Source of the DNA: an uncultured Methanosarcinales archaeon | GTDB taxonomy: Archaea > Nanobdellota > Nanobdellia > Woesearchaeales > JAGVZT01 | Reading direction: 5' to 3' | DNA length: 64,000 bases | Assembly (NCBI GenBank): GCA_964444505.1 | Contig: CAYUHF010000003.1 | Coordinates: 28,189-92,188, forward strand | In this document: piece by piece, positions 2,830 to 23,125 of the stretch | Position numbering within the stretch: position 1 is the first letter of the stretch | Layout of the letters: each line of letters begins with the position of its first letter | The notes under the pieces: generated by a model | Seen by the model: the letters and a program-made list of their open reading frames with translations, nothing else | The model's database searches: none | What the model was told of the DNA's origin: nothing | Program-made: the position numbers and the translations under genes

Positions 2830-4482
2830 TTAGCCATAGACTTCCTGGCCGTTGGATGCGTATGGTTCTGTTGGACTTGTACTTGTTTCTGCTCCCCCAT
2901 ATGAATCAAACCTCTGGCAAGTGCATCCATATCCAAATCTGCTTGTCACCACACAAGGATCTCTATTCCAGACAACCACACAATTCCCGTAAGGGTCTGT
3001 TAATTTGCATGAAGGGCAGAAGCTTATTGAAGTGCTGTACTTCTTCTCATAACCCTCCAAATCTCCATCATCATCAACATCCATGGCAAGCCAAGAGCTT
3101 GAGTATAGTGGGTAATTCTTGCTCTGACCGTTTGTCCTGAAGATTACTTCATCCGGAGGATGTCCTACACACGCTCCATCAACACATTCAAAGTCACATG
3201 TTTCAACTTCTTCCACAGTTTCAGTATATTGACATGAGGCTTCAACTGTGTCTGGTTTATCACAATAATAGTCTCTATAATTATTGTTAACAGCATTTCC
3301 CACACAATACCTGCCTGTATAGGTGTCCTTAGGGCAGTCTGAATCTGAAGTACAATCCACAGGGAGGCATAGGCCATCGCTACATTTGGTATCTGTTGGA
3401 CAGTCATATTCTATTATGTCATAATAACCATCACCCTGAATCTCACAATTCCATCTTGTACTGGGATTAGTACAACCTTTATCCCCAGCATTACACTCGT
3501 CTTCAATAACACACTCCCCATTAACACATTCCTTCCCTGGGGGACAGGGTACAACTGTACTCCATTCAAGACATGTGTCATCGTCATAATCACCACAAGT
3601 GATATATCCATCACCAGAACATTCTCTCTCACCTACAGGAAAACACCCGTCTATGCAAGGCGGTGTATCTTCTTCACATTCAGATTGTATTGAATCACAA
3701 ATGTCATCATGTTGCCAAAAGAAAAGCCATTGTTTTAGTGCATTTATCTCTGTAACTAGACCAGTAACTGAAGATTCCATATCTGATCTCCAACCTTCCA
3801 ATGATGATATGCTATCCTCAATGTCATTTACTATCTCCTGGATATCTGATTTCCACGTTTGAAGAGAGGCTAGCTGGTTCCCCTGGGCTGTGTTCTCCGT
3901 TTCAACATCGGTAATCCTTCTAGATATGTCAGTGATATCAGTTTCTGAATATTGTCCCTTTCCTTCGATATATGATGCTGGACCATCCAAGTCGTATATT
4001 GCATGACCAGATACATAGTCAAGATATAACTTGATATTTAGTATCATATCTAAGTATTTATCATCAACACAATTCGTACAATGCATATAGGAACTACCAG
4101 TCAAATATACTTTTTTATCTGAAGAAAATGCGATGTTGTCGACGTGAAGTGTACCTGTAAAATAACCTTCGTATACGAACCCACTTTGTTCTGGAGTAAA
4201 ACTAACTGCTCCTGCAAAGGCATCTTCTTTTTCATTAAAATAGGATGTAGATAAACAGACCTCTGCATTTTGCATACTTGCAGTCTCTGAATCGTAATAT
4301 TCTGTTGAAAAACAAGTACTCATATAGTCTCCCGTAAAAAAAACATCTTGCTCCGTCGAAATATCGCTCCAGTCATACATTTCTATACTCTCATCACTCA
4401 TAGGAGAGGCCATAATTGTAGATGGAAAGAAACAGAACACACTAAGAAACATAATTACCAAAGAAAAAACTCTTTTGTTCAT
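2830..4482 (-). CDS. Secreted protein (550 aa) with an N-terminal non-Cys domain, a W-rich helical segment, Cys-rich repeats and the conserved C-terminal NGQEVYG domain
   Basis: The start was trimmed to the ATG at 4482 (MNKRVFSLVIMFLSVFCFFPSTIMA signal peptide, GGGGGTG SD 7 nt upstream). The C-terminal 105 aa are near-identical to the 5965 gene. The last ~50 nt are nearly identical at DNA level to 5965-6015. Confidence 0.8.
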   Translation of the reverse strand: MNKRVFSLVIMFLSVFCFFPSTIMASPMSDESIEMYDWSDISTEQDVFFTGDYMSTCFSTEYYDSETASMQNAEVCLSTSYFNEKEDAFAGAVSFTPEQSGFVYEGYFTGTLHVDNIAFSSDKKVYLTGSSYMHCTNCVDDKYLDMILNIKLYLDYVSGHAIYDLDGPASYIEGKGQYSETDITDISRRITDVETENTAQGNQLASLQTWKSDIQEIVNDIEDSISSLEGWRSDMESSVTGLVTEINALKQWLFFWQHDDICDSIQSECEEDTPPCIDGCFPVGERECSGDGYITCGDYDDDTCLEWSTVVPCPPGKECVNGECVIEDECNAGDKGCTNPSTRWNCEIQGDGYYDIIEYDCPTDTKCSDGLCLPVDCTSDSDCPKDTYTGRYCVGNAVNNNYRDYYCDKPDTVEASCQYTETVEEVETCDFECVDGACVGHPPDEVIFRTNGQSKNYPLYSSSWLAMDVDDDGDLEGYEKKYSTSISFCPSCKLTDPYGNCVVVWNRDPCVVTSRFGYGCTCQRFDSYGGAETSTSPTEPYASNGQEVYG

Positions 4483-4604
4483 AATCAACACCCCCAAAAT
4501 CTTTAATGATAAAAAAATATATATCTTTTTCCCTGTCACAATCTGATTAGGGACAACACAGATATTCAAGAAATTTTAAATACTCTTGTTTGTGGATTCA
4601 AGAT

Positions 4605-5795
4605 ATGACACACTATCTGATTGAGTTCAGATTCCAAGGAAAAGCTAAACATGAAATCAGAGAATTAGTCTATGATATAAGGAATAGATTCAATCTTCGT
4701 GGTAAGAGAGCAGTTCCCCATATAACCTTGGCAGGACCTTTAAGTACTAATGATGAAAAAAGATTAATTGGTGAATTAAATAGGCTATGCGGCAAATCTC
4801 CCCTTATGAGTTTCCAGGTTGAAGGTTTCAGTGTTTTCAAGGAAACTGGTGTTGTATTCCTTGATATTAAGCCAAGTGAAGAATTAAAGGAGTTTCGCTG
4901 GAAACTATCAAGAAAATTACAGTCATATTGTGAGTTGAGCAAATACGATTACGATAAAAATTTTGATTTCCATGCTACAATTGCTATGAAACTGCCAGAT
5001 AGAAAGCTTGAACAAATATCCAAATATCTAGAAGAAAAACACAAAGTTGGTTTTCGTCATATCCTGATCAGGGCAACAATAATTAAAAACAAGAAGATAT
5101 TGAGAGAATACGATTTTTTCCTTAGAAGGCCTCTTACGAGAAAGCTCGCATTAAACAGAAGAGTAAAGGCAAAAACCTTTTCTCTATTGGAAGCATATTT
5201 CATTGGCAGATTTAACCCAGATGAGTTTTTTGGTAGATTTAGCTTTAGGATAAAGAAGAAAAAAGCAATAGATAAGTTAATTGATATGTTCAGAAAACCC
5301 AAGATATTTATTACATCAGATCTGCATATGGATCACAAGAACATTATGAAATACTGTGTTAGACCTTTCTTAGCCGTGGAGGATATGAATCGTACTCTTG
5401 TAAACAACTGGAACAACACAGTAAGCAAAAAAGACACAGTGTACTTTCTGGGGGACTTAGCGTTCGGCAGAGGTAGCCGATCAACAGACTATTGGATGAA
5501 AAAGTTGAATGGTAAGATTGTTTTCCTTAAAGGCAACCATGATAAATCATCTAAGATAAAGTTTCATGACAATTACACTCTTGAATATCGTGGGTACAAA
5601 TTCTTTCTTACTCATGAACCCGAAAGCATTCCTGAAGAGTGGGATGGATGGGCTATCTGTGGGCATCATCACAATAACAAAATGGATGAATATCCTTTTT
5701 TTGATAGGGAAAATAGAAGATTCAATGTTTCAACAGAGTTGACTAAATTCTGTCCCATTGAGATGGATGATCTAATAAGACAGATTCAAGAGTGA
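4605..5795 (+). CDS. Two-domain phosphoesterase: N-terminal 2H (LigT-like, two HxTx motifs) fused to a C-terminal calcineurin-like metallophosphoesterase
   Basis: The 2H motifs are PHITLAG and FHATIAM. The MPP motifs are DLHMDH, GDLAFGRG, GNHD, THEPE and GHHH. The ATG at 4605 is preferred over the TTG at 4590. It is the only plus-strand gene inside the minus-strand island. Confidence 0.7.
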   Translation: MTHYLIEFRFQGKAKHEIRELVYDIRNRFNLRGKRAVPHITLAGPLSTNDEKRLIGELNRLCGKSPLMSFQVEGFSVFKETGVVFLDIKPSEELKEFRWKLSRKLQSYCELSKYDYDKNFDFHATIAMKLPDRKLEQISKYLEEKHKVGFRHILIRATIIKNKKILREYDFFLRRPLTRKLALNRRVKAKTFSLLEAYFIGRFNPDEFFGRFSFRIKKKKAIDKLIDMFRKPKIFITSDLHMDHKNIMKYCVRPFLAVEDMNRTLVNNWNNTVSKKDTVYFLGDLAFGRGSRSTDYWMKKLNGKIVFLKGNHDKSSKIKFHDNYTLEYRGYKFFLTHEPESIPEEWDGWAICGHHHNNKMDEYPFFDRENRRFNVSTELTKFCPIEMDDLIRQIQE

Positions 5796-5964: not shown

Positions 5965-7464
5965 CTAGCCATAGACTTCCTGGCCGTTGGAAGCGTATGG
6001 TTCTGTTGGACTGCTGGATGTTTCTGCTCCCCAATAATCTGTGAATCTTGAGCATGAGCATGAATATCCCATCCTGCTTGTTACAACACATGGGTCTCCG
6101 TTCCACACAATCACACAGTTTCCGTACGGGTCTGTCAGCCTGCATGATGGACAGAAGCTTATTGAAGTGCTGTATTTTTTCTGGTAGCCTTCCAATTCTC
6201 CGTTTCCATCTACGTCCATTGCCAGCCATGTTCCTGAATACAATGGATAATTTGCTGACTGGCCGTTTGTCCTGAAGATGACTGACTGTGATGTGTCGCA
6301 TTGTCCGTCAACACAATCTCCAGCGCATGTCTCTACCAGGACAGGATCTACACTGTCTGAACATGATGAATCCAGTGTTCCTGGATTTGAACATGTGTAT
6401 GTTCTCTGGTCTCTGTAGACGGCATTCCCGTCACAGTAATTTTCTGTGACCCATTCATCTGTTCCGCAGTCTGAGTCCTGTGTGCAGGTGAATGACTGGC
6501 ACTCACCGTCAACACATGCATCATTGCAGGTCATTATTGTTTCATCTGTGTCTGTGTATTCACATGCAGCAGATGGTGTTCCTGCGTTCTCGCAGGAATA
6601 ATCCCTGTAAGTGTCATGCACTTCAGCCCCGTCACAGTATCTTCCAAGATACCTGTCTGAAGGACAGTCTGAGTCTGAGTTGCAGCTCACTGCAACACAT
6701 TCTCCATCAAGGCATGCTTCTGCACAGTCTTCGACTAGTTCGTCTGTGTCTGTGTACTCGCATGATGACTGGAGTGTTCCTGGATTTGAACAATAATAAT
6801 CTCTTTGTGTATTGTAGACATCATTGTTCTGGCAGAACTCGCCAAGATAGGTGTCTGACAAACAATCTGAATCTGATTCACAGGCAACTCCTGAGCATGA
6901 GCCTGCTGCATCACACAAGTTTGAGTGTGATGAGAAACCAAGCCAGTCTTTTATTGCCTGGATTGTGTTATCAACAGTGGTCTTCCACTGCATCAGTAAA
7001 GATAAGTCCTGTTCTGCTGTTGTTTTCCAGTCTTCGAGTGCTGCAAGTCTTTCTTCAACATCTCCTGTCGGCTGGCAGTCAGCAACTGTTACATCTGTCA
7101 ATCCTCCAACATCTGTCTCACTCCCTCCTGAAAAACCATAGGTTCCTGAAAAAGAGGATGTGCCTGTTGACATTGGTGCCTGGACTGTATAAGTATGAGT
7201 TGTGTCCTCTGCTCCTGAGAGGATTGTCCAGAATATGTGTGGTGGATTTGTGGTTGAATCTCCGCCCCCGCTGTTCGTGACAGTAAATCCTGCCGGAACA
7301 ACTTCATCTATTAAATATGAAGATTCTGTATTGACATCCACATTCAAAGTCACGTCAAACTCTTCTCCCATGCAGGGTGTCTGCGTGGAAAAAGTTCTTG
7401 ACACTGTTCCTGCAAAAACTGCAGGTATCATCATCAAAAACATCAGATAATAAATTTTTTTCAT
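5965..7464 (-). CDS. Secreted protein (499 aa) with an Ig/CARDB-like N-terminal domain, a WK helical motif, 4 DSDC...NPGT Cys repeats and the C-terminal NGQEVYG domain
   Basis: The start was trimmed to the ATG at 7464 (MKKIYYLMFLMMIPAVFA, GGGGGAT SD). The unit DSDC(x)YLG.YC.GN.VY..RDY.C.NPGT is repeated four times. The C-terminal block ends EPYASNGQEVYG. Confidence 0.8.
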   Translation of the reverse strand: MKKIYYLMFLMMIPAVFAGTVSRTFSTQTPCMGEEFDVTLNVDVNTESSYLIDEVVPAGFTVTNSGGGDSTTNPPHIFWTILSGAEDTTHTYTVQAPMSTGTSSFSGTYGFSGGSETDVGGLTDVTVADCQPTGDVEERLAALEDWKTTAEQDLSLLMQWKTTVDNTIQAIKDWLGFSSHSNLCDAAGSCSGVACESDSDCLSDTYLGEFCQNNDVYNTQRDYYCSNPGTLQSSCEYTDTDELVEDCAEACLDGECVAVSCNSDSDCPSDRYLGRYCDGAEVHDTYRDYSCENAGTPSAACEYTDTDETIMTCNDACVDGECQSFTCTQDSDCGTDEWVTENYCDGNAVYRDQRTYTCSNPGTLDSSCSDSVDPVLVETCAGDCVDGQCDTSQSVIFRTNGQSANYPLYSGTWLAMDVDGNGELEGYQKKYSTSISFCPSCRLTDPYGNCVIVWNGDPCVVTSRMGYSCSCSRFTDYWGAETSSSPTEPYASNGQEVYG

Positions 7465-8051
7465 ACTGATCCCCCTTTCCATAATGTTATTGCGTCAAGC
7501 AAATTATTCATGTCTGCCTGGCCTGACTTCCAGACATTGATATAATCAAGAACTTCATCCATCTCAACTGAACTGCTGCAGTCTGTGTCTGAAAAGTGTG
7601 CTTTTGTCTCGTCTACCTGGCCGTTGCAGTTGTTGTCTTTGCCGTCGCAAAGCTCTGGTGCGCCTGGATAGACTTCTGGGTCGTAATTGTCGCAGTCTGT
7701 TTCTGTGTAGCCGTCTGCATCATAATCTGTTTCGCATGCATCTCCTACACCGTTGTTGTTTGAGTCCTGCTGGTCACGGTTCCATGTGTTCGGGCAGTTG
7801 TCCTGGTAATCAGGAAAACCGTCCAGGTCTTCATCATGTTCTGTGCAGCTGCAGCCATAAGCATCATTGCAGTACTGTGGAAGAGTCCACATTCCATTGT
7901 CCTTGACACACATGTAGCAGCACTCGCTCTCACAGACATAATAGCCTGAAAGAATCTGGCCCTGATCCATGCATACCCAGTAGTTAGCTGATACACTTGC
8001 AGCTAACACCAAGAAAGCAATTAATCCTATCAACATTCTTTTTGTTTTCAT
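7461..8051 (-). CDS. Secreted Ca-binding-like protein with thrombospondin type-3-like repeats and a CxGxDNxCxG motif
   Basis: The start was trimmed to 8051 (MKTKRMLIGLIAFLVLAASVSA). DGFPDYQDNCPNTWNRDQQDSNNNGVGDACETDYDADG fits the TSP3 DxDxDG...DNCP...N.DQ.D consensus. ELCDGKDNNCNGQVDE resembles the MopE-type putative metal-binding motif. A C-terminal WK motif (LDYINVWKSGQADMNNLLDAITLWKGG) is present. There is a 4-nt overlap with the upstream gene. Confidence 0.7.
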   Translation of the reverse strand: MKTKRMLIGLIAFLVLAASVSANYWVCMDQGQILSGYYVCESECCYMCVKDNGMWTLPQYCNDAYGCSCTEHDEDLDGFPDYQDNCPNTWNRDQQDSNNNGVGDACETDYDADGYTETDCDNYDPEVYPGAPELCDGKDNNCNGQVDETKAHFSDTDCSSSVEMDEVLDYINVWKSGQADMNNLLDAITLWKGGSV

Positions 8052-8201: not shown

Positions 8202-9386
8202 TTAAACAGCCTCTCCCCAGAAGAAAATACTTCCTTGTGAAAAGTCGCCGTTACATGGCTCTGGCAAGTCAAGCTTGAATGTCAAAGACATCTCTGCGCC
8301 TGGTGCTAACAAGTTAGCCCCGTAGCCCATATCTGCATCTCCTGCAAATGGTCCATCAATTGGATTAGCCTGCAGGATTTCAGCTTCATTGTACATTGCT
8401 CTTGCAAAGTGATCGCCGTACTGGATGTTGACATAATTCTCTTGATCCAAAGTTCTTGTTGTTGCTGGATCGTAAGTGTTGTCATCATCTGTTGCATCAT
8501 CAGCACTTGAATAAGCGCCGTTTGTTGCAAAGTAAGCAAAGTTGTGCAAGTCAAGCTTGTTTGTTGTAGGACACTTAGCACCTGAGTGTGCTGGGTCATA
8601 AAAGTCTGTTCCTGATATAAACATATCAAGTAGTACTCCTGAACCATCCTCTGCGCCGTTACCTACTGTCAGAGTGTTTGAGTAAACCTGTGTTCCAGGT
8701 CTTACGCCATTCTCTCCGCCAAATGTAAGCTGAGATCCGTCAAGTGTCAATGAGATTGCTGGATTGAAGAACCAGTATTCGTTCTCGTCCATTGATCCCA
8801 TTAAACCATCAAGGTCAACAACATTTGCTGTTACCCAGTACTCACCATGGAAGATGTCGTCTCCTCCTTCTACCATCTGTGGACCTTCAACAGTTAGAGT
8901 ACATCTGTAGTAGTCCATTGTGTTTGCGTCAAAGTCTACTAACTGCTCTTCGTCAATTCTTGCATTACAAGAATCACAAATTTGTCCATTTGAATCATCA
9001 CATGGAGCACTTGTCTTGTCACAGTTCACTTCAATCTCGTTTCCGCTTCCCTGTACTTTGCCAACTGATACATAAACATCCTCGATCTTCTCGATTCCGT
9101 TCTTGTCCATGACAAGTACTGTCCAGGCAATCTGTTCTCCTTCAAAAGCGTAGTTGTTATTTCTCTCAAGAAGCTCTGCGCCTACCTCAGCGTCACCTAC
9201 TGCGCCTGCGGTAATTCTTCCCCACTCAACATTGTCATCTGACACAAATCTACTGTCACACATCCAAATTCGTGGTTCAAAGTCCTCTGTTGGTATGTCA
9301 ATGCCTACACTGCCGCCAATGCTATTTGCAAAAACAGCTGGTAGCAACATTGCCACAGCCATCAAAACTGCTATTAGTTTTTTCAT
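8202..9386 (-). CDS. Secreted acidic protein (394 aa), possibly a cell-surface or S-layer-like component
   Basis: The start was trimmed to the ATG at 9386 (MKKLIAVLMAVAMLLPAVFA). A strong GGAGGT SD lies 7 nt upstream. The protein is D/E/G/N-rich with few Cys. There is no recognisable catalytic motif. Confidence 0.6.
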   Translation of the reverse strand: MKKLIAVLMAVAMLLPAVFANSIGGSVGIDIPTEDFEPRIWMCDSRFVSDDNVEWGRITAGAVGDAEVGAELLERNNNYAFEGEQIAWTVLVMDKNGIEKIEDVYVSVGKVQGSGNEIEVNCDKTSAPCDDSNGQICDSCNARIDEEQLVDFDANTMDYYRCTLTVEGPQMVEGGDDIFHGEYWVTANVVDLDGLMGSMDENEYWFFNPAISLTLDGSQLTFGGENGVRPGTQVYSNTLTVGNGAEDGSGVLLDMFISGTDFYDPAHSGAKCPTTNKLDLHNFAYFATNGAYSSADDATDDDNTYDPATTRTLDQENYVNIQYGDHFARAMYNEAEILQANPIDGPFAGDADMGYGANLLAPGAEMSLTFKLDLPEPCNGDFSQGSIFFWGEAV

Positions 9387-9912
9387 GTTTTTTAACCTCC
9401 TTCCTATTCTATTCAAATCATTATCCAGCTTGCGCCGGATATTGTGGCCGATCATAAACCAACCACACCCCTATTAGATAGGGCCCTCTCCAACAAATCG
9501 GGTGAAATGTTGGGTCATGAAACTCATGACAATAATTTTGAGACTAGCTAAACGTAGAATCTTGTTTGGCTCCCCTCAAACCTTTGTACACCCCCTACCA
9601 ACACTAACATTTTTTTATCATCATAGAATGATGATTGTTTGTGATATCTATCGTAGAGTAGTATTCCATATAAATATATTGTTGTAAGACAATTTATATT
9701 CTAAAACACCGAAAAAATCGTTTATCACAAGTTGGATACGAACTGTTCTAAGACTAAAAAACAAGCTTTTAAGCACTTTTTGGTATTTTCAACACAAAAG
9801 TGTGACAACTCAGTTGATTTATAAAACTATTTGAAAATGACAACAAAAATCTATTACCACTAGAAAAAATAACAGAGTGTTTTATCCATGTAGATACGAG
9901 AGGGGGGAAATA

Positions 9913-10403
9913 TCAGCTGGTGAGCTTTGTGAACTGTTTTCTTAGTGATTTGACCACTTCATTTGTAAGGTTAGCTTTAATCAATTTTATATTAACAACA
10001 AACCCTTCTGCCATCTCCATTAGTTCTTCTGCTTTTTTTCTGACCTCACCTTCAGAAACATAGTACTGTTTTTCGATTCTTTCTTCCTTCACCAGTGTGC
10101 TAGCCAGTTCCTTGTCAACCCCCTAAGAATCAGAATCGAACCCAGATGATTTTCTGATTTAATACCTACCTTGTACAGAAGAGAGATTAAAATATTGTAC
10201 ATTGTATAATATGACATAGCCACAGAGTTCTCATAAAGAGAATTTTCATACAACAATCTGGCAGATTTCATGCAATTTGCCGATTTCTCAGCATAAGAAT
10301 TTGAAATATTCTCTGAAGGATCAATAAGACTTAACTTTTCCTCCTGTCTTAATCTCGCCAAAAATCTTGTCATAGTACTCTTCAAAACCCTTAACAATGA
10401 CAT
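9913..10403 (-). pseudogene. HEPN-domain toxin paralogue 1, disrupted by a frameshift in a C5/G5 homopolymer
   Basis: ORF 10089..10403 ends ...ILILRGLTRNWLAHW*. A second frame continues GVDKELASTLVKEERIEKQYYVSEGEVRKKAEELMEMAEGFVVNIKLIKANLTNEVVKSLRKQFTKLTS*, which aligns with the C-terminal half of HEPN paralogue 2 (GLSKEDL...). A +1 shift at the ccccc run (10110-10114) restores a ~160-aa protein. Confidence 0.55.
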
Positions 10404-10974
10404 GGTTTTTTATGATCTCCTGAATAAGAGCCGAATTCTTATCGAATCTTCCGGATTTTACATTAATCCCAGAAAGTGTTTTTTCGATTTTTTCTTCAAC
10501 ATAAAGGTCGATATCACTATTCTTTCGTGCAGTACCTTTTGCATAAGAGCCGAAAAGAATTACCATGCTGTCTGTCTTGATATCAGCAAATATCACCCTT
10601 AGATGTGGATACTTGGTGAGTGTTTTTTCCAATACGTAGAGCTCTGAAGTCAGCATGTAGACCTTTGAAAACATATTTTTCTTTACAAAATAGACTTTGT
10701 TTCTGCCCTTTTTTTCAAAATCAACCACCTGCTTACAATAAAGAGAATTCAGTCTTCTGGATACAGTGGAATGTGGCTCATCTAAAATCCTTGCCAACTC
10801 CCTGACATGCATCTCCTTCTTAACCAAGTAATGCACAATCTCCAGCTCAATATTGTTTCTATTTTGAACCATATGTACCAATAATGAACCAATAGTATTT
10901 AATGTTTTTGCTTTATAGCCAAACTGCCCTTCTTTGCCGTAGCTGTAAGAAAAGTGATCAATTAGAATTATCAA
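10321..10974 (-). CDS. wHTH + minimal nucleotidyltransferase (MNT) antitoxin-type protein, copy 1
   Basis: The NTase motif is LFGSYAKGTARKNSDIDLYV (GS...DxD). An N-terminal winged HTH (HVRELARILDEPHSTVSRRLNSL) is present. There is an apparent TTG start. The gene overlaps both flanking HEPN genes. Confidence 0.7.
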   Translation of the reverse strand: MIILIDHFSYSYGKEGQFGYKAKTLNTIGSLLVHMVQNRNNIELEIVHYLVKKEMHVRELARILDEPHSTVSRRLNSLYCKQVVDFEKKGRNKVYFVKKNMFSKVYMLTSELYVLEKTLTKYPHLRVIFADIKTDSMVILFGSYAKGTARKNSDIDLYVEEKIEKTLSGINVKSGRFDKNSALIQEIIKNHVIVKGFEEYYDKIFGEIKTGGKVKSY

Positions 10975-11521
10975 CCATATCCCTTAGCTTATTCACAAAC
11001 AAAACAGCTTTTATCCTAAGATTCTCAACTTCCATACTATCAAAAAGCGTCTTAGTTGAATATGTGGCATTCTCTCTTTTATTCTTTGACTCAACATAAA
11101 ACAGAACATCCTCATAGTCCAAAAAACCTGAGACAATTATCAGATCTTCTTTGGACAGACCCTTCTTATAGAACTTTTCTATCAGAACCAATAGTGTAGC
11201 TTCATGGTTTTTGGAGGAATAACCTTTTGTCTGTATCAATGCCAGTGCTGCATGATAGCAGGCATAATAGCATCCAGTAATTGCCCAATCATAGAATTTA
11301 TTTTCAGAAGCCAGTTTGATAAACCTAAGGTTGTTCTCTGCTTTTGAAATATGCCCTTCTATTTCTGCATGGTCAATCTCCTGTTTATTCAGCAGCCCCT
11401 CATTTCTATACTTTTTGATCCTCCCACTCACAATTTCAGGGTTGTCCAATAGTCTAAGAAGCTCATATTCTCTCATCAAGGACCTCATAATATGAGATGT
11501 GATTGACGATCGGATAACCAC
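10958..11521 (-). CDS. HEPN-domain protein (toxin partner of MNT), copy 2
   Basis: The size and all-helical sequence fit, and it overlaps the MNT genes on both sides. It is paralogous to 9913..10403. A KNH variant replaces the canonical Rx4-6H motif (YSSKNHEATLLVL). The true start is probably at an internal Met (MRSLMREYELL). Confidence 0.55.
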   Translation of the reverse strand: MVIRSSITSHIMRSLMREYELLRLLDNPEIVSGRIKKYRNEGLLNKQEIDHAEIEGHISKAENNLRFIKLASENKFYDWAITGCYYACYHAALALIQTKGYSSKNHEATLLVLIEKFYKKGLSKEDLIIVSGFLDYEDVLFYVESKNKRENATYSTKTLFDSMEVENLRIKAVLFVNKLRDMVDNSN

Positions 11522-12131
11522 TGTTTATTGCAGACTGTATTACCTTATCCTCTTTAAGTTTAAGTTCAATAACAAAATCATTGTATTCAATCTGGAAAGT
11601 ATTAATCTTAACTGCAGCAAGAGCATCTGCTTCATTTTCTGCATCTTTTGTTGAAATCTTTTTGTTTGTGACAAGCAGTATATCCATATCAGACTCTTTC
11701 TTTTGCGTGCCTTTGGCAGTTGAACCAAAAAGAACCGCAAAGACAGGTACTTGGTCAAGCTTTTCCATGTATGCCTTTATCGCTTTTTTTCTTATTCTGG
11801 GCAGTTTCTGATACCTTTCAACATCAAAAGAAGTAAACACAAGATACGCTTGTCTTGTCTTCTTAACTCTAAAGAGTTTTAGATTCCCTTTCCTGTCTGA
11901 CTTTAGTATTTGGTCCTCTTCCAGTCTTTCAAGAAATCTGGTTACGCTTGGTAGATGCATATCTGCCCTTCTTGCAATTTCTCTTAGATGCAATTCCCTG
12001 CCCATATCATCATAGAATAACTGCATTATTTCCATATAGCCGTTTTTTAATATTGTTACCATTATTATATCAATCGTTATAATATCTTTATCATATATAA
12101 ACCTTTCTAACTGTTTCATATGATTAATCAA
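11463..12131 (-). CDS. wHTH + minimal nucleotidyltransferase (MNT), copy 2
   Basis: LFGSTAKGTQKKESDMDILLV matches the NTase motif. An N-terminal HTH (LHLREIARRADMHLPSVTRFLERL) is present. The protein is paralogous to 10321..10974. Confidence 0.7.
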   Translation of the reverse strand: MINHMKQLERFIYDKDIITIDIIMVTILKNGYMEIMQLFYDDMGRELHLREIARRADMHLPSVTRFLERLEEDQILKSDRKGNLKLFRVKKTRQAYLVFTSFDVERYQKLPRIRKKAIKAYMEKLDQVPVFAVLFGSTAKGTQKKESDMDILLVTNKKISTKDAENEADALAAVKINTFQIEYNDFVIELKLKEDKVIQSAINSGYPIVNHISYYEVLDERI

Positions 12132-12214
12132 TCCATAGCTCTTTTTATGACATAACCAAGAAAAATCGGAATAAAGTCGGATTAAACAAAAAATCTCCAG
12201 TAAGTGAAATCCAC

Positions 12215-12850
12215 CTATATTTTGGCCTTTATGTTTCCAATAAGCTTCTGGGAGAACATATTCCAGAATAATGCCTCTCTAATATATGGTGCCTCTGGTA
12301 TTGCATCACTTGCAGAATATTTGTTAATAAGGCTCCTATACACTCTCTGAGACTTATCATAAGCCTGTTTTACTGTTTTTCCCTTTAGAATTGATCTTGG
12401 AATAATATTACTTGGTGTCATAAAAATTGAGCCAATTTCATCTTTCTCAGGTGTACATTCTTTGTTTTTATCAGTCAGGAAAACAAAAGGTGCTTTGTAA
12501 CCAATGAATGCCTTGCATTTCTTATTAACAGCAGATACACCTAAACTCTTTGCTGAGTTGCATGAGAGAGAATAGCATATCTTACCAGAGAGCAGTTTGT
12601 CATTCACATTTTCCTCAATCAGCTTCATATTATCATATCCGCATATGACAGAGTTACTCCCGTGCCCATTAAACCAGACAAAATCAATGTTCCTCTTTTT
12701 CAGAAAGCTTTCAACAGTAGTCCTATCCGACCTTTCTCCATCTAAAAGATAAATTGACGGTTCAAATTCACAAATAACCTCTGAAGCCCAGCATGCAAGG
12801 TATTGAGTAGTCAGGTCTGAATTAGGCAAGGTTACTAAGGTTTTGTTCAT
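12215..12850 (-). CDS. Stand-alone caspase-like (clan CD, C14-like) cysteine peptidase domain protein, 211 aa, cytoplasmic
   Basis: FVWFNGHGSNSVICGYDN...LSGKICYSLSCNSA matches the caspase His-Gly...Gly-Lys-(hydrophobic)5-x-C-x-G/S-A dyad pattern. Compare caspase-3 SHGEEGIIFGTNG...GKPKLFIIQACRG. There is no signal peptide. A 4-nt ATGA overlap joins it to the upstream small gene. Confidence 0.55.
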   Translation of the reverse strand: MNKTLVTLPNSDLTTQYLACWASEVICEFEPSIYLLDGERSDRTTVESFLKKRNIDFVWFNGHGSNSVICGYDNMKLIEENVNDKLLSGKICYSLSCNSAKSLGVSAVNKKCKAFIGYKAPFVFLTDKNKECTPEKDEIGSIFMTPSNIIPRSILKGKTVKQAYDKSQRVYRSLINKYSASDAIPEAPYIREALFWNMFSQKLIGNIKAKI

Positions 12851-13050
12851 TCTATCCCTTTCTTAAAAGATCTCAAATAGTTCAGCTGCATCTCAATCAC
12901 AAGCTTTCCAAACTCATCCTTTCTCTTGACAGCAGCTATAAGCTCATCTCTGTCAAAACTGCCGTAATTGCCAAGATGAGTCTTGATATTATTAGGCATT
13001 GACTCTAGTCTTTTTACAACAAGCTGTACAATATCTTCTGAATAATCCAT
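12847..13050 (-). CDS. Small hypothetical protein (67 aa), middle gene of the 3-gene cassette
   Basis: Its ATG directly abuts the TAA of the upstream ORF (TAAATG), suggesting translational coupling. No motif was recognised. Confidence 0.45.
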   Translation of the reverse strand: MDYSEDIVQLVVKRLESMPNNIKTHLGNYGSFDRDELIAAVKRKDEFGKLVIEMQLNYLRSFKKGIE

Positions 13051-13386
13051 TTAGATCAAATCCATCCCCTTGAGTTTTTCAAGTATTCTCCTCCCAAGTT
13101 CAGTCCCATTATCAACTTCTATGTAAGCTGCATTCCATGAATACGGCTTGTCATCAACAACTACTATTATCTCATTTCTTACATCTTCAGGAAGATTTGA
13201 ATAAACCCTCAAAAACCTGTCTTTTGACATCTGAAGCATATTACATTTCTCATCTATATAAAGATTATTAAAACATAACATAAAATATCCAAAAAACTTT
13301 CGAGAAAAAGTGTGGTTCCACCAATTAAAATCACATACAGCCTCGGCCAGATGAAGTTGCGAAGCAATGGAATAAGCCATGAGCAA
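13051..13386 (-). CDS. Small hypothetical protein (111 aa, or 62 aa from the internal ATG at 13239)
   Basis: The first ~17 codons (MLMAYSIASQLHLAEAV) come from the 60-nt MNT-derived repeat and are probably not native. A likelier start is MLQMSKDRFLRVYSNLPEDVRNEIIVVVDDKPYSWNAAYIEV. It is in the same frame as the 67-aa ORF, separated by a single TAA. Confidence 0.4.
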   Translation of the reverse strand: MLMAYSIASQLHLAEAVCDFNWWNHTFSRKFFGYFMLCFNNLYIDEKCNMLQMSKDRFLRVYSNLPEDVRNEIIVVVDDKPYSWNAAYIEVDNGTELGRRILEKLKGMDLI

Positions 13387-13401
13387 ATGGCCTTCTGTGC
13401 C
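13341..13401 (-). repeat. 60-nt dispersed repeat (copy B), continuous with ~27 nt homologous to the 5' end of MNT copy 1
   Basis: The reverse complement is ~90% identical to 2718-2777. Positions 13391-13417 (ccttctgtgccgtagctgtaagaaaaa) match 10926-10953 at the start of the MNT gene at 26 of 27 positions. Confidence 0.6.
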
Positions 13402-13419
13402 GTAGCTGTAAGAAAAAAA

Positions 13420-16400
13420 TTAAACAACAATGATTGGCCTGTGCCTTACCCTTCTCAAGCCTTCATTGTATAATTCAAGCTTGACCATGTAAAACCCTGG
13501 CCTTGCATCATCAGGTATTTCCAGCAACAAGTCTCTTGTCAACTCACCGTCAGCATTCACACTCATTGGACCGAGTCTTCTGCTCTTGATTCCAAGTCCC
13601 TGGACAAATGCCTCTATTTCTAGATTCTTCATCTCACAATAACCCATGTTCCTGAAGTTTACTGTTATCTGGAGCTCTTCTCCCGGCTCTACAACCTCAT
13701 CATACACAAACCCGATTCTGTCGATTCTTATCTTTGCCTTTGGCTCGTTTATGTAGTTGTAGTCGCACTCTGTTTTTTCATACTCGCACATGCAGTCGCT
13801 GCAGATATCTATTGTTGTCGGGTTGTCATCAAAGCAGTCTGCATCTGTTGCACACTCTGCTCCGCATCTTCCAGCTACACACTGTGTTTTTGTCTCAAAT
13901 TCACCAAAAACACACATACACTGTGAACTGCAGTCACCATAGCCCTGTGCTACTGACAGCTTGTTTCCAACACACTCTTCTTCTTTTGCAAAGCAGTTTT
14001 CATTCCCGGAAGTTCCAGGTAGTTCACATTCCTCTCCTGCATCAATGTTTCCATCACCGCAGTAAGGAACATACTCGTGCTCACACATACAACCGCTGCA
14101 TGTGTCTATTGTGTGCTCGTTCAGGTCATTGCAGTCATCATCTGAGTCACACTCAGCACCGCATGATCCCTGCACACATTCTGCTACTGGCCATACATCC
14201 TGCAGACAGCCGCAGTTTGGATCACAGTAACCAAATTCATCCCTGGTTGCTGTTTTCTTGCCTTCGCACTTTTCTGTGCTTTGTTCACAATATGAGTTGT
14301 CCTGTGTATCAGGCAGCTCACATTCTTCACTTGATGAATCAACCATCCCGTCACCACAATATCCATTGTGGGTGTATTCACATACACAGCTGTCTGTACA
14401 GACATCATCTGTTAATGGGTCTGAATCATCACAGTCTGAATCTGTCTCGCACTCTGCATTACATCTTGACATGTCACATGTATGAGTAAGTGTATCATCT
14501 TCTGTTGTACATTCACCTGGCTCTACACATTCTGATTCAAAACCTTCTCTTTTGTCCCATGTGTATGGGTTGCTATCAGGTATATTGTTACATGTCATTA
14601 TCTCTTCTATATCATATTCTGAGCAGTCTATTGGCTCTCCTGGTACACAGAATGCTGAATCATTATCTTCTTCACATGACTCCTGGCCATTGCAGCCAAG
14701 TCCGTCATCACAGTCCTGTTTTAGTGTATCTGAAAAAACACACTCTGCATTAGAACATGTCCCATCTCTTCCCCAGTGTTCTGTTCCTACACAGTAGCCG
14801 CTGTCAAGCTCATTGCAATCCTCTGTGGTTGTTTCTGTTTCACATTGGTTTTCTATACATACTCCTTGGTCATGTTTTACAAAGTCTCCATCACAGTAAT
14901 CATCATCTAAATAATCACAGTCTGAGTCTTCCATACATTCATATGGCTGGCACATCTCATCACAGCCATTTGTTCCTGGTGCAAACTCATCACATTCTGG
15001 TGCTGAAAGACATCCTGCATAGTCATCTTCACAGTGGTTGTCCTGCAGTTTGCAGTTTGCATCACAGTAGTCCTGCAGATATGGTGAACCATGCTCATCA
15101 CATGAAGCCAAAACTGTATTTGGCAGCTCACACTCCTCTCCAGCATCAGGATCAACTATTCCGTCACCACAGTAGCCATTATGGGTGTATTCACATGTAC
15201 AGCTGTCTGTACAAATATCATCTGTTAAAGGATTTGAATCATCACAATCAGAGTTTCTCTCGCACTCTGCATTACATCTTGAGATGTCACAGCTGTGCGT
15301 TATCATTTCGTCTCCAGTTGTACATTCTCCTGGTTCTACACATTCTGATTCAAAACCTTCTCTTTTGTCCCACGTGTATGGGTTGCTGTCAGGCATATTG
15401 TTACATGTCATTATCTCTTCTATATCATATTCTGAGCAGTCTATTGGCTCTCCTAAAACACACTCTGCCTGGTGATCAGCTCCTGGTGTTTCTTCACATG
15501 TCTCCTGGCCGTTGCAAGCAAGCCCGTCATCACAACTATAACTGTCTGAATCTATTATTACACACTTTGCAGAGTCACATGAATACAATTCTGTTACAAT
15601 GGAATTTCCTGAACAGTATTCTGTGTCAAGCTCACTGCAGTCCTCTGTTGTGGTCTCAACTTCACATTTATTTTCTATACATACTCCTTGGTCGTGCCTG
15701 ATCAAATCTCCAGCACAGTAATCATCATCCAGATAATCACAGTCTGAATCATCCATACACTCGTATGGCTGGCATGTCAAGTCACAGCCTTCTGTTCCAG
15801 GGATCACTTCATCACACTCTGGGTGAGCTGAACATCCTGGATAATCATCTTCACAGTGCTCATCCTGAAGCTGGCAGTTCGCATCACAATAGTCTCCAAG
15901 ATAGCTGCTTCCATAATCACATGATGCCAAAGCTGTATTTGGCCTCTCACATTCTTCGCCTGCATCAGGATCAACTATGCCGTCTCCACAGTAGCCTTGC
16001 TTAATATGCTCACATTCGCATTCTACACATATATCATCAGTAAGAGGATTTGAATCGTCACAATCAGAGTTTTTCTCGCATTCTGCATTACACCTTGATA
16101 TATCGCATGCGTGTGTAATTATTCCTCCCCATGTTGTACATTGGCCTGGCTCTATACATTCTGATTCAAAGCTTTCTCTATAGTCCCATGAAAATGGATT
16201 ATCATCTGGTATATTGTTGCAGGTTGAAATCTCTTCTTTATCATTATATGAACAGTCGATTGGTTCTCCTGGTACACAGAATGCTGTATCAAGGTCTTCT
16301 TCACATGACTCCTGGCCATTGCATGCAAGGCCATCATCACATTGTTCAACTAAACTTGTTGAAACTGAACACTGTGCATTACTGCATGTTCCATCATCTT

Positions 16401-17676
16401 CCCAGACTTTTGAATTTGAGCAATATTCCTGATCATACTGGTTGCAGTCCTCAGTTGTTGTTTCAACTTCACATTCAAAATTAATACATACTCCTTCATC
16501 ATGTTTTACAAAGTCACCAGTACAGTAATCATCATCTAAATAATTACAGTCTGAATCATACTGGCATTCTGTGCATCTTGGGTCGTTGTAGCTTACTGTT
16601 GGGTTTGAACAACTGTTCTCCTCGCACATACAGTTTCTGCAGTCATTAACTTTGTCTGAATAATCATAATAATCATTTCCAACACACCCGTCAAGATGGT
16701 CGCATTCTGTATTGTCACAGTCATAGTTTGAGTCACAATCAGCACCACATCTGCCCTCAACACACTGGAAATTAAAACTGTCAAATATACATCCGCAGTA
16801 GTGGCCGCAGTCTCCATAATAGTCTCTTGTTCCCAGTTTGTTTCCTTCACACCTTTCTGTGCTCTGGACACAATAGTGGTTGTTGTAGGTATCTGGATAT
16901 TCACAACTCTCTGTATAGTCTACATGTCCGTCACCACAGTAAGACTGCTGTTCTATTGTAAAGCTGCTGTCTGCACATGGAATGTTGTGGTCTTTGTAGA
17001 ACATTGCATAATATATTCCTGTCTGGGTTGGTGTGTATTCCCAGTCCCAGTAGCCTTTCTGGCCTGCTTTGTGATGGTTACCCATCCTATCTGGTCCTCC
17101 AAGACTCACTATAGTGCCTGAAGGATTTCTTACTTTAACAATTACATTTGTATAAGGAACATATGATCTTATTCTTATGTAGAATTTCTGGTCTAAAGAA
17201 GGTGTTACCTGGTTTCCATACTGGTCAACAAAGAGCATCTCTTCGTGTGCATCTGGGTCGCAACTCTGCACTTCACCGCCGTCTCCCACCCACACAATAA
17301 AGTCATTAACTGTGTTGTCATATCCAGGAGCATTGAATATATCTATCTGCTGTGTCTGGTCTCCATTTGCATTTATACAAAAAGACCCTGATGTCTTGAC
17401 TTCAGGTGTTGAATCCCTGCACTCTATGCCTGTATCTCCCTGGCAGGTGTGTCTTTCTACTCTCCAGCCGCTGTAAGGTACTGTACAGCACATTGTGTCT
17501 TCATTACATCCAATACAGTTTGGATCATTTTCATATGCACCGCAGATATTTACTATCTCTCCCCATGCACCGCTCTGGCTCTGGTGAGGTATTGGCGGGT
17601 TCGGGTATCCTATTACTGCCTGTAAGGCTATTAGAAATAATACTGAGTAAATTACAAATCTTGTTTTTTTATCCAT
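13420..17676 (-). CDS. Giant secreted cysteine-rich modular surface protein 1 (1418 aa), with 3 copies of a ~270-aa module and a C-terminal CARDB-like beta-sandwich
   Basis: The start was trimmed to the ATG at 17676 (MDKKTRFVIYSVLFLIALQAV signal peptide). Repeated motifs are CMDDSDCDYLDDDYC, CDDGLACNGQETCEE and CGDGIVDPDAGEECE (Myxococcus-type Cys-rich repeat-like). The C-terminus GEELQITVNFRNMGYCEMKNLEIEAF...GFYMVKLELYNEG is CARDB-like. Confidence 0.85.
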   Translation of the reverse strand: MDKKTRFVIYSVLFLIALQAVIGYPNPPIPHQSQSGAWGEIVNICGAYENDPNCIGCNEDTMCCTVPYSGWRVERHTCQGDTGIECRDSTPEVKTSGSFCINANGDQTQQIDIFNAPGYDNTVNDFIVWVGDGGEVQSCDPDAHEEMLFVDQYGNQVTPSLDQKFYIRIRSYVPYTNVIVKVRNPSGTIVSLGGPDRMGNHHKAGQKGYWDWEYTPTQTGIYYAMFYKDHNIPCADSSFTIEQQSYCGDGHVDYTESCEYPDTYNNHYCVQSTERCEGNKLGTRDYYGDCGHYCGCIFDSFNFQCVEGRCGADCDSNYDCDNTECDHLDGCVGNDYYDYSDKVNDCRNCMCEENSCSNPTVSYNDPRCTECQYDSDCNYLDDDYCTGDFVKHDEGVCINFECEVETTTEDCNQYDQEYCSNSKVWEDDGTCSNAQCSVSTSLVEQCDDGLACNGQESCEEDLDTAFCVPGEPIDCSYNDKEEISTCNNIPDDNPFSWDYRESFESECIEPGQCTTWGGIITHACDISRCNAECEKNSDCDDSNPLTDDICVECECEHIKQGYCGDGIVDPDAGEECERPNTALASCDYGSSYLGDYCDANCQLQDEHCEDDYPGCSAHPECDEVIPGTEGCDLTCQPYECMDDSDCDYLDDDYCAGDLIRHDQGVCIENKCEVETTTEDCSELDTEYCSGNSIVTELYSCDSAKCVIIDSDSYSCDDGLACNGQETCEETPGADHQAECVLGEPIDCSEYDIEEIMTCNNMPDSNPYTWDKREGFESECVEPGECTTGDEMITHSCDISRCNAECERNSDCDDSNPLTDDICTDSCTCEYTHNGYCGDGIVDPDAGEECELPNTVLASCDEHGSPYLQDYCDANCKLQDNHCEDDYAGCLSAPECDEFAPGTNGCDEMCQPYECMEDSDCDYLDDDYCDGDFVKHDQGVCIENQCETETTTEDCNELDSGYCVGTEHWGRDGTCSNAECVFSDTLKQDCDDGLGCNGQESCEEDNDSAFCVPGEPIDCSEYDIEEIMTCNNIPDSNPYTWDKREGFESECVEPGECTTEDDTLTHTCDMSRCNAECETDSDCDDSDPLTDDVCTDSCVCEYTHNGYCGDGMVDSSSEECELPDTQDNSYCEQSTEKCEGKKTATRDEFGYCDPNCGCLQDVWPVAECVQGSCGAECDSDDDCNDLNEHTIDTCSGCMCEHEYVPYCGDGNIDAGEECELPGTSGNENCFAKEEECVGNKLSVAQGYGDCSSQCMCVFGEFETKTQCVAGRCGAECATDADCFDDNPTTIDICSDCMCEYEKTECDYNYINEPKAKIRIDRIGFVYDEVVEPGEELQITVNFRNMGYCEMKNLEIEAFVQGLGIKSRRLGPMSVNADGELTRDLLLEIPDDARPGFYMVKLELYNEGLRRVRHRPIIVV
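14361..16572 (-). repeat. Array of three ~810-nt coding tandem modules inside giant gene 1
   Basis: The module boundaries are derived from the repeated YECM(D/E)DSDCDYLDDDYC anchors at aa ~375, 646 and 919. Long stretches are identical in DNA to modules of giant gene 2. For example, 14907-15155 and 19080-19358 give identical alternate-frame peptides. Confidence 0.75.
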
Positions 17677-17723
17677 TTTTATTGTCCACCTCAAATGTTA
17701 TAACCATTAAGTGACTACTATCA

Positions 17724-17916: not shown

Positions 17917-20900
17917 TCAAATTACAATGATTGGCCTGTGCCTTACTCTTCTCAAGCCTTCATTGTATAATTCAAGCTTGACCATGTAAAACCCTGGCCT
18001 TGCATCATCAGGTATTTCCAGCAACAAGTCTCTTGTCAACTCACCGTCAGCATTCACACTCATTGGACCGAGTCTTCTGCTCTTGATTCCAAGTCCCTGG
18101 ACAAATGCCTCTATCTCAAGGCTCTTCATCTCGCAGTAGCCCATGTTTTTGAAATTGACAACTATCTGGAGCTCTTCGCCGGGTCTTACTATCTCATCAT
18201 GCACAAAGCCGATTCTGTCAATTTTTATCTTGGCTTTTGGGTCTTTTATATAGTTGTAGTCGCACTCTGTTTTTTCATACTCACACATGCAGTCGCTGCA
18301 GATATCTATTGTTGTTGGGTTGTCATCAAAGCAGTCTGCATCTGTTGCACACTCTGCCCCGCATCTTCCAGCTACACACTGTAGTTCTGATTCAAACTCG
18401 CCAAAGGTACACTTGCACTGATAACTGCAGTCACCGTAGCCCTGTGCTACTGACAACTTGTTTCCAACACACTCTTCTTCTCTTGCAAAGCAGTTTTTGT
18501 TGTCTGATGTTCCAGGTAGTTCACACTCTTCACCTGATGCTGTATCAACTATCCCATCACCACAGTATCCAATGTGGGTGTATTCACATACACAGTCTTT
18601 ACAGACCTCATCTGTTAATGGGTCTGAATCATCGCAGTCTGAGTTTGTTTCGCACTCTGCATCACACTCTGAAATATCACATGTGTGCTCTATTGTTTCA
18701 TCTTCTGTTGTACATTCTCCTGGCTCCACACATTCTGACTCAAAGCTTTCTCTATAGTCAAATGTGTATGGGTTATCATCAGGTATATTATTACAGGTTG
18801 AAATTCCTTCTATATCATATTCTGAGCAGTCTATTGGCTCTCCAGATACACAGAATGCTGAATCATTATCTTCTTCACATGACTCCTGGCCATTGCAGCC
18901 AAGTCCGTCATCACACTCTTCCTGCATATAATCGTTAACAATACACTGGGCATCTGAACAGGTTCCTTCTGATACCCAAATCTCTGTGCCCTGGCATGAT
19001 TCTTCGTCATACTGGCTGCAATCTTCTGCTGTGGTCTCGACTTCACATTGGTTTTCTATACATACTCCATTATCATGTTTTACAAAGTCTCCATCACAGT
19101 AATCATCATCCAGATAGTCACAGTCTGAGTCTTCCATACACTCATATGGCTGGCACATCTCATCACAGCCATTTGTTCCTGGTGCAAACTCATCACATTC
19201 TGGTGCTGAAAGACATCCTGCATAGTCATCTTCACAGTGGTTGTCCTGCAGTTTGCAGTTTGCATCACAGTAGTCCTGCAGATATGGTGAACCATGCTCA
19301 TCACATGAAGCCAAAACTGTATTTGGCAGCTCACACTCCTCTCCAGCATCAGGGTCAACTATTCCGTCACCACAATATCCATTGTGGGTGTATTCACATA
19401 TACAACTGTCTGTACAAATATCATCTGTCAATGGGTCTGAATTATCGCAGTCTGAATCTGTTTCGCACTCTGCATTACATCTTGATATGTCACATGTGTG
19501 AGTAAGTGTATCATCTTCTGTTGTACACTCCCCTGGCTCTACACATTCTGATTCAAAACCTTCTCTTTTGTCCCATGTGTATGGGTTGCCATCAGGTATA
19601 TTATTACAAGTTAATATTTCTTCTATATCATATTCTGAGCAGTCGATTGGCTCTCCTGATACACACTCTGCCTGGTGATCAGCTCCTGGTGTTTCTTCAC
19701 ACGTTTCCTGGCCATTACATGCAAGGCCATCATCACAATTATAACTGCCTGAACCTGCTATTACACATTCTGCATTGCTGCATGTATGGTCCTCTGTTAT
19801 AATGGAAGTTCCTGAACAGTATTCTGTGTCAAGCTCATTACAATCCTCTGTGGTTGTTTCTGTTTCACATTTGTTTTCTATACATACCCCATGGTCATGT
19901 TTGACCAAGTCACCTTCACAATAATCATCATCCAGATAATCACAGTCTGAATCATCCATACACTCGTATGGCTGGCAGGTCAAATCACAGCCAGCTGTCC
20001 CTGGGATCACTTCATCACAATCTGGATGTGCTGTACACCCTGGATAGTCATCTTCACAGTGGTCATCCTGGAGCTTACAGTTTGAATCGCAGTAGTCCTG
20101 CAGATAATCTTCCCCATAATCACATGATGCCAGGACTGTGTTTGGAAGCTCACACTCTTCACCTGCATCTGGATCAACTATGCCGTCACCACAGTAGCCT
20201 TGCTTAATATGCTCACATTCGCATTCTACACATATATCATCAGTAAGAGGATTTGAATCGTCACAATCAGAGTTTTTCTCGCATTCTGCATTACATCTTG
20301 AGATATCGCATGCGTGTGTAATTATTCCTCCCCATGTTGTACATTCTCCTGGTTCAATACATTCTGATTCAAAGCTTTCTCTATAGTCCCATGTGTATGG
20401 ATTATCATCTGGTATATTGTTACAGGTTGAAATCTCTTCTTTATCATTATCTGAACAGTCTATTGGTTCTCCTGGTAAACAGAATGCTGTAGCAAGGTCT
20501 TCTTCACATGACTCCTGGCCATTGCATGCAAGGCCATCATCACAGTCCTGTTTTAATGTATCTGAAACAACACACTCTGCATTAGAACATGTCCCGTCTC
20601 TTCCCCAGTGTTCTGTTCCTACACAGTAGCCGCTGTCAAGTTCATTACAATCATTTGTGGTTGTTTCTGTTTCACATTTGTTTTCTATACATACCCCTTG
20701 GTCATGTTTGACCAAGTCACCTTCACAATAATCATCATCTAAATAATCACAGTCTGAGTCATCCATGCACTCGTATGGCTGGCATGTCAAGTCACAGCCA
20801 GCTGTCCCAGGAATTAATTCATCACATTGAGAATCAGCTGTACATCCTGGATAATCATCTTCACAGTGGTTGTCCTGCAGTTTGCAGTTTGCATCACAGT

Positions 20901-23115: not shown

Positions 23116-23125
23116 ATTAAGACCT

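Follow-up and report, generated by a model that had tools for sequence, protein, structure and literature searches.

Proteases of the caspase fold have a central part in eukaryotic cell death and immunity and, increasingly, also in those of bacteria. To our knowledge, those so far studied in prokaryotes either carry fused sensor domains or are wired to partners from clustered regularly interspaced short palindromic repeats (CRISPR), cyclic-oligonucleotide-based antiphage signaling (CBASS), TIR or gasdermin systems. Here we analyze a three-gene cassette within positions 12215-13386 of a 64,000-nucleotide (nt) stretch of archaeal DNA (contig CAYUHF010000003.1; the whole stretch is referred to as the window), in which the arrangement is different: a catalytic domain of 211 amino acids (aa), encoded by the open reading frame (ORF) ORF-C, is accompanied by two apparently obligate, separately encoded partners of about 60 aa, ORF-A and ORF-B. 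As a clan-CD protease system, the cassette has a new architecture, and no description of this three-gene module was found in the literature.

Among described proteins, ORF-C is structurally closest to the gingipains and the CHAT proteases. The gingipains RgpB and Kgp (MEROPS family C25, clan CD) are secreted enzymes that exceed 400 aa and consist of several domains, including a prodomain, Ig-like domains and a C-terminal sorting domain. In contrast, ORF-C is a cytoplasmic single domain that shares 8-14% identity with the gingipains, has no match to Pfam C25 and is encoded together with two separate small partner genes. The CHAT proteases (SAVED-CHAT, the TPR-CHAT protein Csx29 of Craspase and the DdvA anti-sigma factor) carry fused sensor or adaptor domains (SAVED, TPR or transmembrane) and are linked to CRISPR or CBASS, whereas ORF-C has no extra domain, no match to the CHAT hidden Markov model (HMM) and no CRISPR or CBASS neighbors.

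The nearest functional precedent for a protease with gating partners is PCaspase. In the type III-B CRISPR locus of Haliangium, this protein, which bears the annotation Peptidase C14 and for whose activation an upstream SAVED-CHAT protease is responsible, is co-encoded with PCi and PCc-sigma; PCi is a small protein that acts both as inhibitor and as substrate of PCaspase and was reported to have no homologs elsewhere (bioRxiv 10.1101/2023.06.23.546230). The likeness lies in a stand-alone prokaryotic caspase with small co-encoded proteins. The present cassette differs in that genes for CRISPR, CBASS, kinases and sigma factors are absent and that the partners form a large conserved family. Separase and securin (C50) also count among the nearest functional precedents and likewise differ in defining features, separase being a giant eukaryotic protein with helical regulatory domains of more than 1,000 aa and securin an unrelated disordered protein.

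Three-component toxin-antitoxin (TA) operons such as omega-epsilon-zeta and paaR-paaA-parE provide a further comparison. The cassette resembles them as a compact, autonomous and horizontally spread operon with variable neighbors, in which two small genes precede and overlap or abut a larger one, and in the window it lies beside HEPN/MNT pairs. Unlike antitoxins, which have a recognizable DNA-binding or antitoxin fold and usually evolve faster than the toxin, ORF-A and ORF-B carry no recognized antitoxin or DNA-binding domain and evolve more slowly than the putative toxin. We know of no TA toxin that is a clan-CD protease.

Fold, active site and family of ORF-C

In its AlphaFold model, ORF-C forms a single compact domain that spans all 211 residues. 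Inspection of the sequence revealed no N-terminal hydrophobic segment, and the original prediction of a stand-alone cytoplasmic protein devoid of fused domains agrees with both observations. The modeled domain has the fold of clan CD, an alpha/beta/alpha sandwich whose central sheet comprises five parallel strands and one antiparallel strand. The dyad of this clan consists of a His(-Gly) and, after it, a Cys, both located where a hydrophobic strand ends C-terminally, and is present as His63 directly after strand 55-61 (FVWFNGH63G) and Cys97 directly after strand 91-95 (ICYSLSC97). The corresponding motifs, FNGH63GS (NGHGS) and SC97NSA, place the two residues 34 positions apart and bear out the His-Gly/Cys signature in canonical spacing that had been proposed for this gene. 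Among 150 diverged homologs, H63, G64 and C97 were the sole invariant columns, followed by D137 (99%), P9 (94%) and D12 (84%). The Cys was located at His+34 in most of the 160 homologs inspected and at +33 to +35 in most others, and a GHG with a downstream Cys occurred in every locus covering that region (95/95). This conservation of the dyad supports catalysis by ORF-C.

A structure comparison of the model gave the highest figures for the gingipains RgpB (16.3) and Kgp (15.6) and for activated SAVED-CHAT (15.3), followed by separase (13.2 and 12.8), the TPR-CHAT of Craspase (13.2), Metacaspase-9 (12.5) and legumain (11.9); paracaspase, caspases and C11 enzymes ranked after legumain. In a separate ranking by Foldseek, SAVED-CHAT (E 4e-6), RgpB, separase, Craspase, CED-3 and C11 came first. 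The caspase-fold reading withstood the structural check.

At the level of sequence, no Pfam family matched ORF-C at E <= 1. Peptidase_C14 (PF00656), CHAT (PF12770), Peptidase_C25, C11 and C13 were matched by none of 10 members of the ORF-C family, so that C14, CHAT and C25, the candidate families named in the original prediction, were not confirmed. Scans of ORF-A, ORF-B, ORF-C and members of their families against Pfam, NCBIfam, PADLOC and PHROG yielded nothing significant. Searches of the PDB by sequence, with single sequences and with profiles of 10, 27, 17 and 150 sequences, returned chance matches only (e.g. aspartate aminotransferase, E 0.075), and the 150-sequence ORF-C profile retrieved no peptidase chain. 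Relatives of ORF-C are nevertheless numerous: a word-indexed search found nine, and a full profile search 2,696 cluster representatives (50% identity) at E <= 1e-3, with 404 at E <= 1e-30. The best 150 were almost all 200-220 aa long, indicating that they are stand-alone single-domain proteins.

By modeled fold and dyad, ORF-C affiliates with clan CD, and peptidase activity is predicted. It fails every family HMM and represents a separate clan-CD family outside the curated libraries searched. The position of two acidic residues in the model bears on its specificity: Asp12 lies in the loop that follows strand 1, and Asp137 in the one that follows strand 5. These loops hold Arg179 and Arg341 in caspases, and acidic S1 residues in metacaspases and gingipains. 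Since Asp12 and Asp137 occupy the loops with the P1-binding residues of other clan-CD enzymes, ORF-C is predicted by analogy to cleave, probably, after Arg or Lys.

Conservation and distribution of the cassette

Homologs of ORF-C are encoded in the same surroundings. The small-small-large order was found in the first three contigs with homologs, and their small proteins aligned with ORF-A and ORF-B. A scan of GTDB species genomes yielded 16 loci and a metagenome scan 80 further loci. Among the loci with at least 450 nt of upstream DNA, which are the informative ones, HMMs of both small families located ORF-A and ORF-B directly upstream of ORF-C in 84 of 87. The small genes, whose co-occurrence with the protease had been left for checking, are real, co-inherited partners rather than chance neighbors.

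Each of the three exceptions has its own form. One locus (L022) encodes a single A-B fusion of 134 aa (L022:2597-2998) and another (L079) a single B-C fusion of 287 aa (L079:604-1464). Taken as natural, these fusions suggest a physical association of the proteins, with sequencing error as a possible cause. In the third locus (L099), ORF-C follows unrelated GC-rich DNA, probably in a chimeric assembly. The original prediction had also considered that ORF-A and ORF-B might be a single protein interrupted by a TAA codon. Over 18 loci the gaps at the gene junctions ranged from -38 to +29 nt, and the frame relation of ORF-A and ORF-B differed between loci. Because of this variable frame relation they are two genes and not one interrupted gene.

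The archaeal hosts in GTDB belong to Methanosarcinales, Methanoperedens, Methanobacteriota, Aenigmatarchaeota, Micrarchaeota, Nanoarchaeia and Pacearchaeota. The hosts that belong to the candidate phyla radiation (CPR) of bacteria are Parcubacteria, Saccharibacteria, Moraniibacteriota, Nomurabacteria, Woesebacteria and an unassigned Patescibacteria genome. In DPANN archaea, methanogens and CPR bacteria alike, the three genes are inherited together as one unit. In a rough neighbor-joining tree, archaeal and CPR sequences were partly intermixed, which together with the scatter of hosts over unrelated phyla of both domains indicates horizontal transfer of the cassette. A viral or plasmid origin was considered and rejected, two peptide patterns having retrieved no relatives from IMG/VR and tblastn none from phage or plasmid records.

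In a few loci ORF-C is visibly damaged. The homolog at L011:275-847 has lost the segment with the catalytic Cys through an internal deletion, and the homologs at L090:2974-3636 and L092:606-1268, from two different samples, have an in-frame TAA in common that lies between their His and Cys regions; in L090, ORF-A and ORF-B are still intact. Frameshifts occur in L082 and L096. Some of these disruptions may be assembly errors, and the disrupted ORF-C of L090/L092 and L011 may represent either a pseudogene or a two-chain form of an unusual kind.

The small proteins ORF-A and ORF-B

Over 72 complete cassettes, the mean pairwise identity was 48.6% for ORF-A, 40.0% for ORF-B and 37.9% for ORF-C. ORF-A is hence the most conserved of the three proteins. 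The pairwise divergences of the three were correlated (r 0.64-0.72). In ORF-A, Arg21 and Trp35 are absolutely conserved and Glu41 and Thr46 nearly invariant, and its C-terminus (..E-I/L-I) is kept to the last residue in most homologs. ORF-B often has a conserved basic-basic-Gly motif followed by a variable tail; as this tail overlaps the start region of ORF-C, its variability may simply reflect the overlap. Between the profiles of the two families there is a weak alignment (hhalign P 4e-4, probability 34%; P 0.003 in another comparison), and on this alignment ORF-A and ORF-B may be distant paralogs.

No recognizable domain, whether antitoxin or DNA-binding, was found in either protein in the scans of family libraries. 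The model of ORF-A is an alpha/beta structure with a beta-hairpin. An initial impression (LPxxxR...) that ORF-A and ORF-B may be helix-turn-helix (HTH) proteins of the sigma-70 region 4 type found no HMM support, and the ORF-A model contains a beta-hairpin instead.

Organization of the locus in the window

The three genes of the window lie head to tail on the minus strand in the order ORF-A, ORF-B, ORF-C (Table 1). Their coordinates and both junctions noted in the original prediction were read directly in the sequence: the plus-strand CATTTA at 13048-13053 is the TAAATG that joins ORF-A to ORF-B, and the plus-strand TCAT at 12847-12850 is the ATGA shared by ORF-B and ORF-C. For ORF-A a length of 62-111 aa had been given. 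The short form held, whereas the 111-aa version, a TTG extension that reaches to 13386, is conserved in none of the homologs. Translation from the second ATG (13230) yields MSKDRF..., the N-terminus of the closest homologs, which are 59 aa long, and this ATG is probably the true start.

Table 1 Features of the cassette and its surroundings in the window
Feature	Coordinates	Strand	Remarks
ORF-A, small partner 1	13051..13239	minus	62 aa from ATG at 13239; probably 59 aa from ATG at 13230
ORF-B, small partner 2, 67 aa	12847..13050	minus	start abuts ORF-A stop (TAAATG); stop overlaps ORF-C start (ATGA)
ORF-C, 211 aa	12215..12850	minus	clan-CD (caspase-fold) cysteine peptidase by fold and dyad
ORF-C codon His63	12664-12662	minus	
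ORF-C codon Cys97	12562-12560	minus	
ORF-C codon Asp137	12442-12440	minus	
TATA-like box TTTATATA	13255..13262	minus	16-23 nt 5' of ATG 13239; 25-32 nt 5' of ATG 13230
T-run TTTTTTGTTT	12186..12195	minus	20-29 nt after ORF-C stop
Repeat copy 1	13385-13414	minus	in the spacer that separates the cassette from the stop of the 1424-aa ORF
Repeat copy 2	10922-10951	minus	upstream of the second MNT-HEPN pair
wHTH-MNT nucleotidyltransferase, pair 1	11463-12131	minus	overlaps its HEPN gene
HEPN, pair 1	10958-11521	minus	overlaps its MNT gene
wHTH-MNT nucleotidyltransferase, pair 2	10321-10974	minus	
HEPN, pair 2	10089-10403	minus	overlaps its MNT gene

The box TTTATATA upstream of ORF-A is a putative and, judged by its position, probable archaeal promoter, from which the operon would be transcribed without a leader. 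Too near the ATG at 13239 for a leader, the box has a spacing that agrees with a leaderless transcript from the ATG at 13230. Boxes of the TTTATATA type also occur just 5' of ORF-A in several other archaeal loci. Behind ORF-C, the T-run TTTTTTGTTT is a possible archaeal terminator that would end the operon before the MNT gene. Sigma-70 promoters and hairpin terminators are not expected in an archaeon, and a scan of 12000-13500 for both gave nothing above chance.

Directly downstream of the cassette, which the original prediction had placed next to TA cassettes, lie two tandem TA-type pairs of winged-HTH (wHTH)-MNT and HEPN genes (10089-12131). The original prediction had further described a 60-nt repeat derived from the MNT gene at the 5' end of the cassette. 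The repeat is instead 30-32 nt long, with three mismatches between its copies, and the second copy, located upstream of what is probably the true start of the neighboring MNT gene, falls outside the coding region of this gene. The window contains only these two copies, with 0 expected by chance. Both copies begin a few bases behind the stop codon of the gene before them and lie 5' of the next cassette. No significant RNA structure was predicted for them (fold z-scores -0.9 and -0.6). The repeat may be a mark or scar of cassette boundaries or a shared regulatory element, and whether it belongs to the cassette is uncertain.

On the upstream side, two giant ORFs are encoded on the minus strand (13420-17694, 1424 aa, and 17917-23280, 1787 aa). 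The 1424-aa product, extremely rich in Cys and Asp, with long internal repeats (e.g. CDSDCDYLDDDYC...GLACNGQESCEE) and no Pfam match at E <= 1e-5, is probably a repeat protein that is secreted or located at the surface. Unannotatable genes abound in the window, among them four minus-strand ORFs of 357-579 aa without a Pfam match at E <= 1e-5 (8202-9455, 5965-7482, 2830-4569 and 1524-2597). Annotated plus-strand genes code for a 2'-5' RNA ligase-like (LigT) domain fused to a metallophosphoesterase (4590-5795), an FAD-dependent reductase (24551-25654), an archaeal AglB/STT3 oligosaccharyltransferase (26025-28721) and a GT4 glycosyltransferase (29717-30802), the AglB/STT3 gene marking the window as archaeal. 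No tRNA genes or Rfam matches were found in the entire 64 kb.

In the other loci, an all-against-all BLAST of 75 and then of 299 flanking ORFs revealed no generally conserved fourth gene. An AAA_14/DUF4143 ATPase adjoins the cassette on either side in seven loci (L015, L016, L026, L030, L068, L074 and L082), with 25-94% identity between the copies, and an MNT-type nucleotidyltransferase is located nearby in eight loci besides the window (L034, L062, L068, L075, L076, L081, L090 and L091). Genes for gasdermin, CD-NTase, SAVED, TIR or CRISPR-Cas were not found linked to the cassette, none of these being a recurrent neighbor in 99 loci.

Possible roles of the cassette

The molecular part of our interpretation, a real operon coding for a real clan-CD protease with two obligate partners and predicted activity, is very probably correct. 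That the cassette as a whole is a self-contained, partner-gated protease module with a TA-like or conflict role is a tentative proposal, to which we give somewhat less than an even chance. According to this proposal, ORF-A and ORF-B would form a heterodimer that binds ORF-C near its N-terminus and gates or targets it, controlling access to the active site as an inhibitor, a pseudo-substrate or an adaptor. Docking near the N-terminus is suggested by the B-C fusion, and it is this N-terminus that leads into the loop predicted to form the S1 pocket. Once the partners were lost, cleaved or modified, ORF-C would cut cellular proteins and growth would be arrested, so that the module would behave as a tripartite TA or abortive-infection module rather than as a housekeeping enzyme.

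A conflict role is favored by the compact, autonomous architecture and the spread across both domains, by the location in variable regions beside TA genes and the repeated proximity of MNT and AAA_14/DUF4143 genes, by the occasional decay of ORF-C and by the precedent of PCaspase. Several observations weigh against it. The nearest neighbors of the cassette are mostly housekeeping genes (FtsZ, RNase J, DnaG, MraZ, PriS and ParA/MinD), with ArsA and one Schlafen-type helicase as other examples. None of the three proteins matched a family of PADLOC-DB v2 at E <= 1 (0 families) or any PHROGs entry, tblastn revealed no copies in phage or plasmid records, and two peptide patterns found no relatives in viral contigs of IMG/VR. 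The cassette encodes no sensor domain, and the ORF-A model could not be assigned to a fold and gave no HTH match. Finally, ORF-A and ORF-B are more conserved than ORF-C, unlike typical fast-evolving antitoxins; since their rate of evolution does not exceed that of ORF-C, the small proteins look like obligate subunits rather than ordinary antitoxins, and their conservation would fit stable subunits of a housekeeping complex equally well.

A housekeeping heterotrimeric protease is the strongest rival, and we consider it somewhat less likely than the conflict role, for which our preference is weak. ORF-A and ORF-B would then be permanent adaptor or regulatory subunits, or dedicated substrates, of an enzyme for maturation or quality control in small-genome anaerobes, in analogy to the Prp protease that processes the ribosomal protein L27 in Firmicutes. 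Besides the strong conservation of the small proteins and their divergence in step with ORF-C, this reading draws on the dyad kept in 100% of the 150 homologs, on the retention of the cassette in the strongly reduced genomes of CPR and DPANN, on its stable context within the Methanoperedens group (L007, L023, L024 and L032), on the prevalence of housekeeping neighbors and on the missing links to phages, plasmids and defence databases. It accords poorly with the scatter of hosts over unrelated phyla of both domains and the intermixed tree, with flanks that hold no conserved genomic partner or candidate substrate gene, with the disruption of ORF-C in several loci and with the recurrence of the cassette beside MNT/HEPN and AAA_14/DUF4143 genes.

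Less probable still is a proteolytic transcription switch, in which ORF-A and ORF-B would be a pair of small DNA-binding repressors cleaved by ORF-C on a signal, similar to ImmR/ImmA and to the modules of protease and sigma/anti-sigma factors CalpL/T/S and Craspase-Csx30-RpoE. The small-small-large order is like that of regulator-first operons, and the control of sigma factors by caspase-like proteases has a precedent (bioRxiv 10.1101/2023.06.23.546230). ORF-B also gave repeated weak matches to the recognition-helix region of OmpR/PhoB winged helices, but these stay far below significance (E 0.3-1 against the PDB; Trans_reg_C in 3 of 17 members, best E 0.002, sub-threshold). Further arguments against such a switch are the alpha/beta model of ORF-A with its hairpin and without an HTH match, the lack of conserved regulated neighbor genes and the promoter and terminator scan with nothing above chance, no search for a conserved operator having been made. 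It is highly improbable that ORF-C is a transpeptidase or ligase (like GPI8, PorU or legumain-type ligases) that attaches or processes ORF-A or ORF-B as a small protein tag, since the conserved end of ORF-A and the basic-basic-Gly motif before the variable tail of ORF-B, which would suit such a role, stand against closest structural matches that are hydrolases, an ORF-A without signs of a ubiquitin-like fold, the lack of linked target or acceptor genes and a tail variability that may only reflect the gene overlap.

Returning to the partner-gated conflict module, its most novel form would be a proteolytic switch of an undescribed class with three components: a heterodimer of two paralogous 60-aa proteins would restrain a minimal caspase-fold protease, constituting an autonomous TA or abortive-infection system that spreads among DPANN archaea, methanogens and CPR bacteria. 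We regard this form as possible but doubtful. If it is true, the cassette would represent the first TA-type system whose toxin is caspase-like and would be a candidate for the minimal form of regulated caspase activation.

With the module come at least one new clan-CD family and two new families of small proteins, and its hosts, CPR bacteria, DPANN archaea and methanogens, are lineages with a mostly uncharted biology. Its small size would permit reconstitution, crystallization and testing in E. coli. Whatever its role, be it toxin-antitoxin, defence or housekeeping, the cassette offers a minimal model for the gating in trans of a caspase-type active site.

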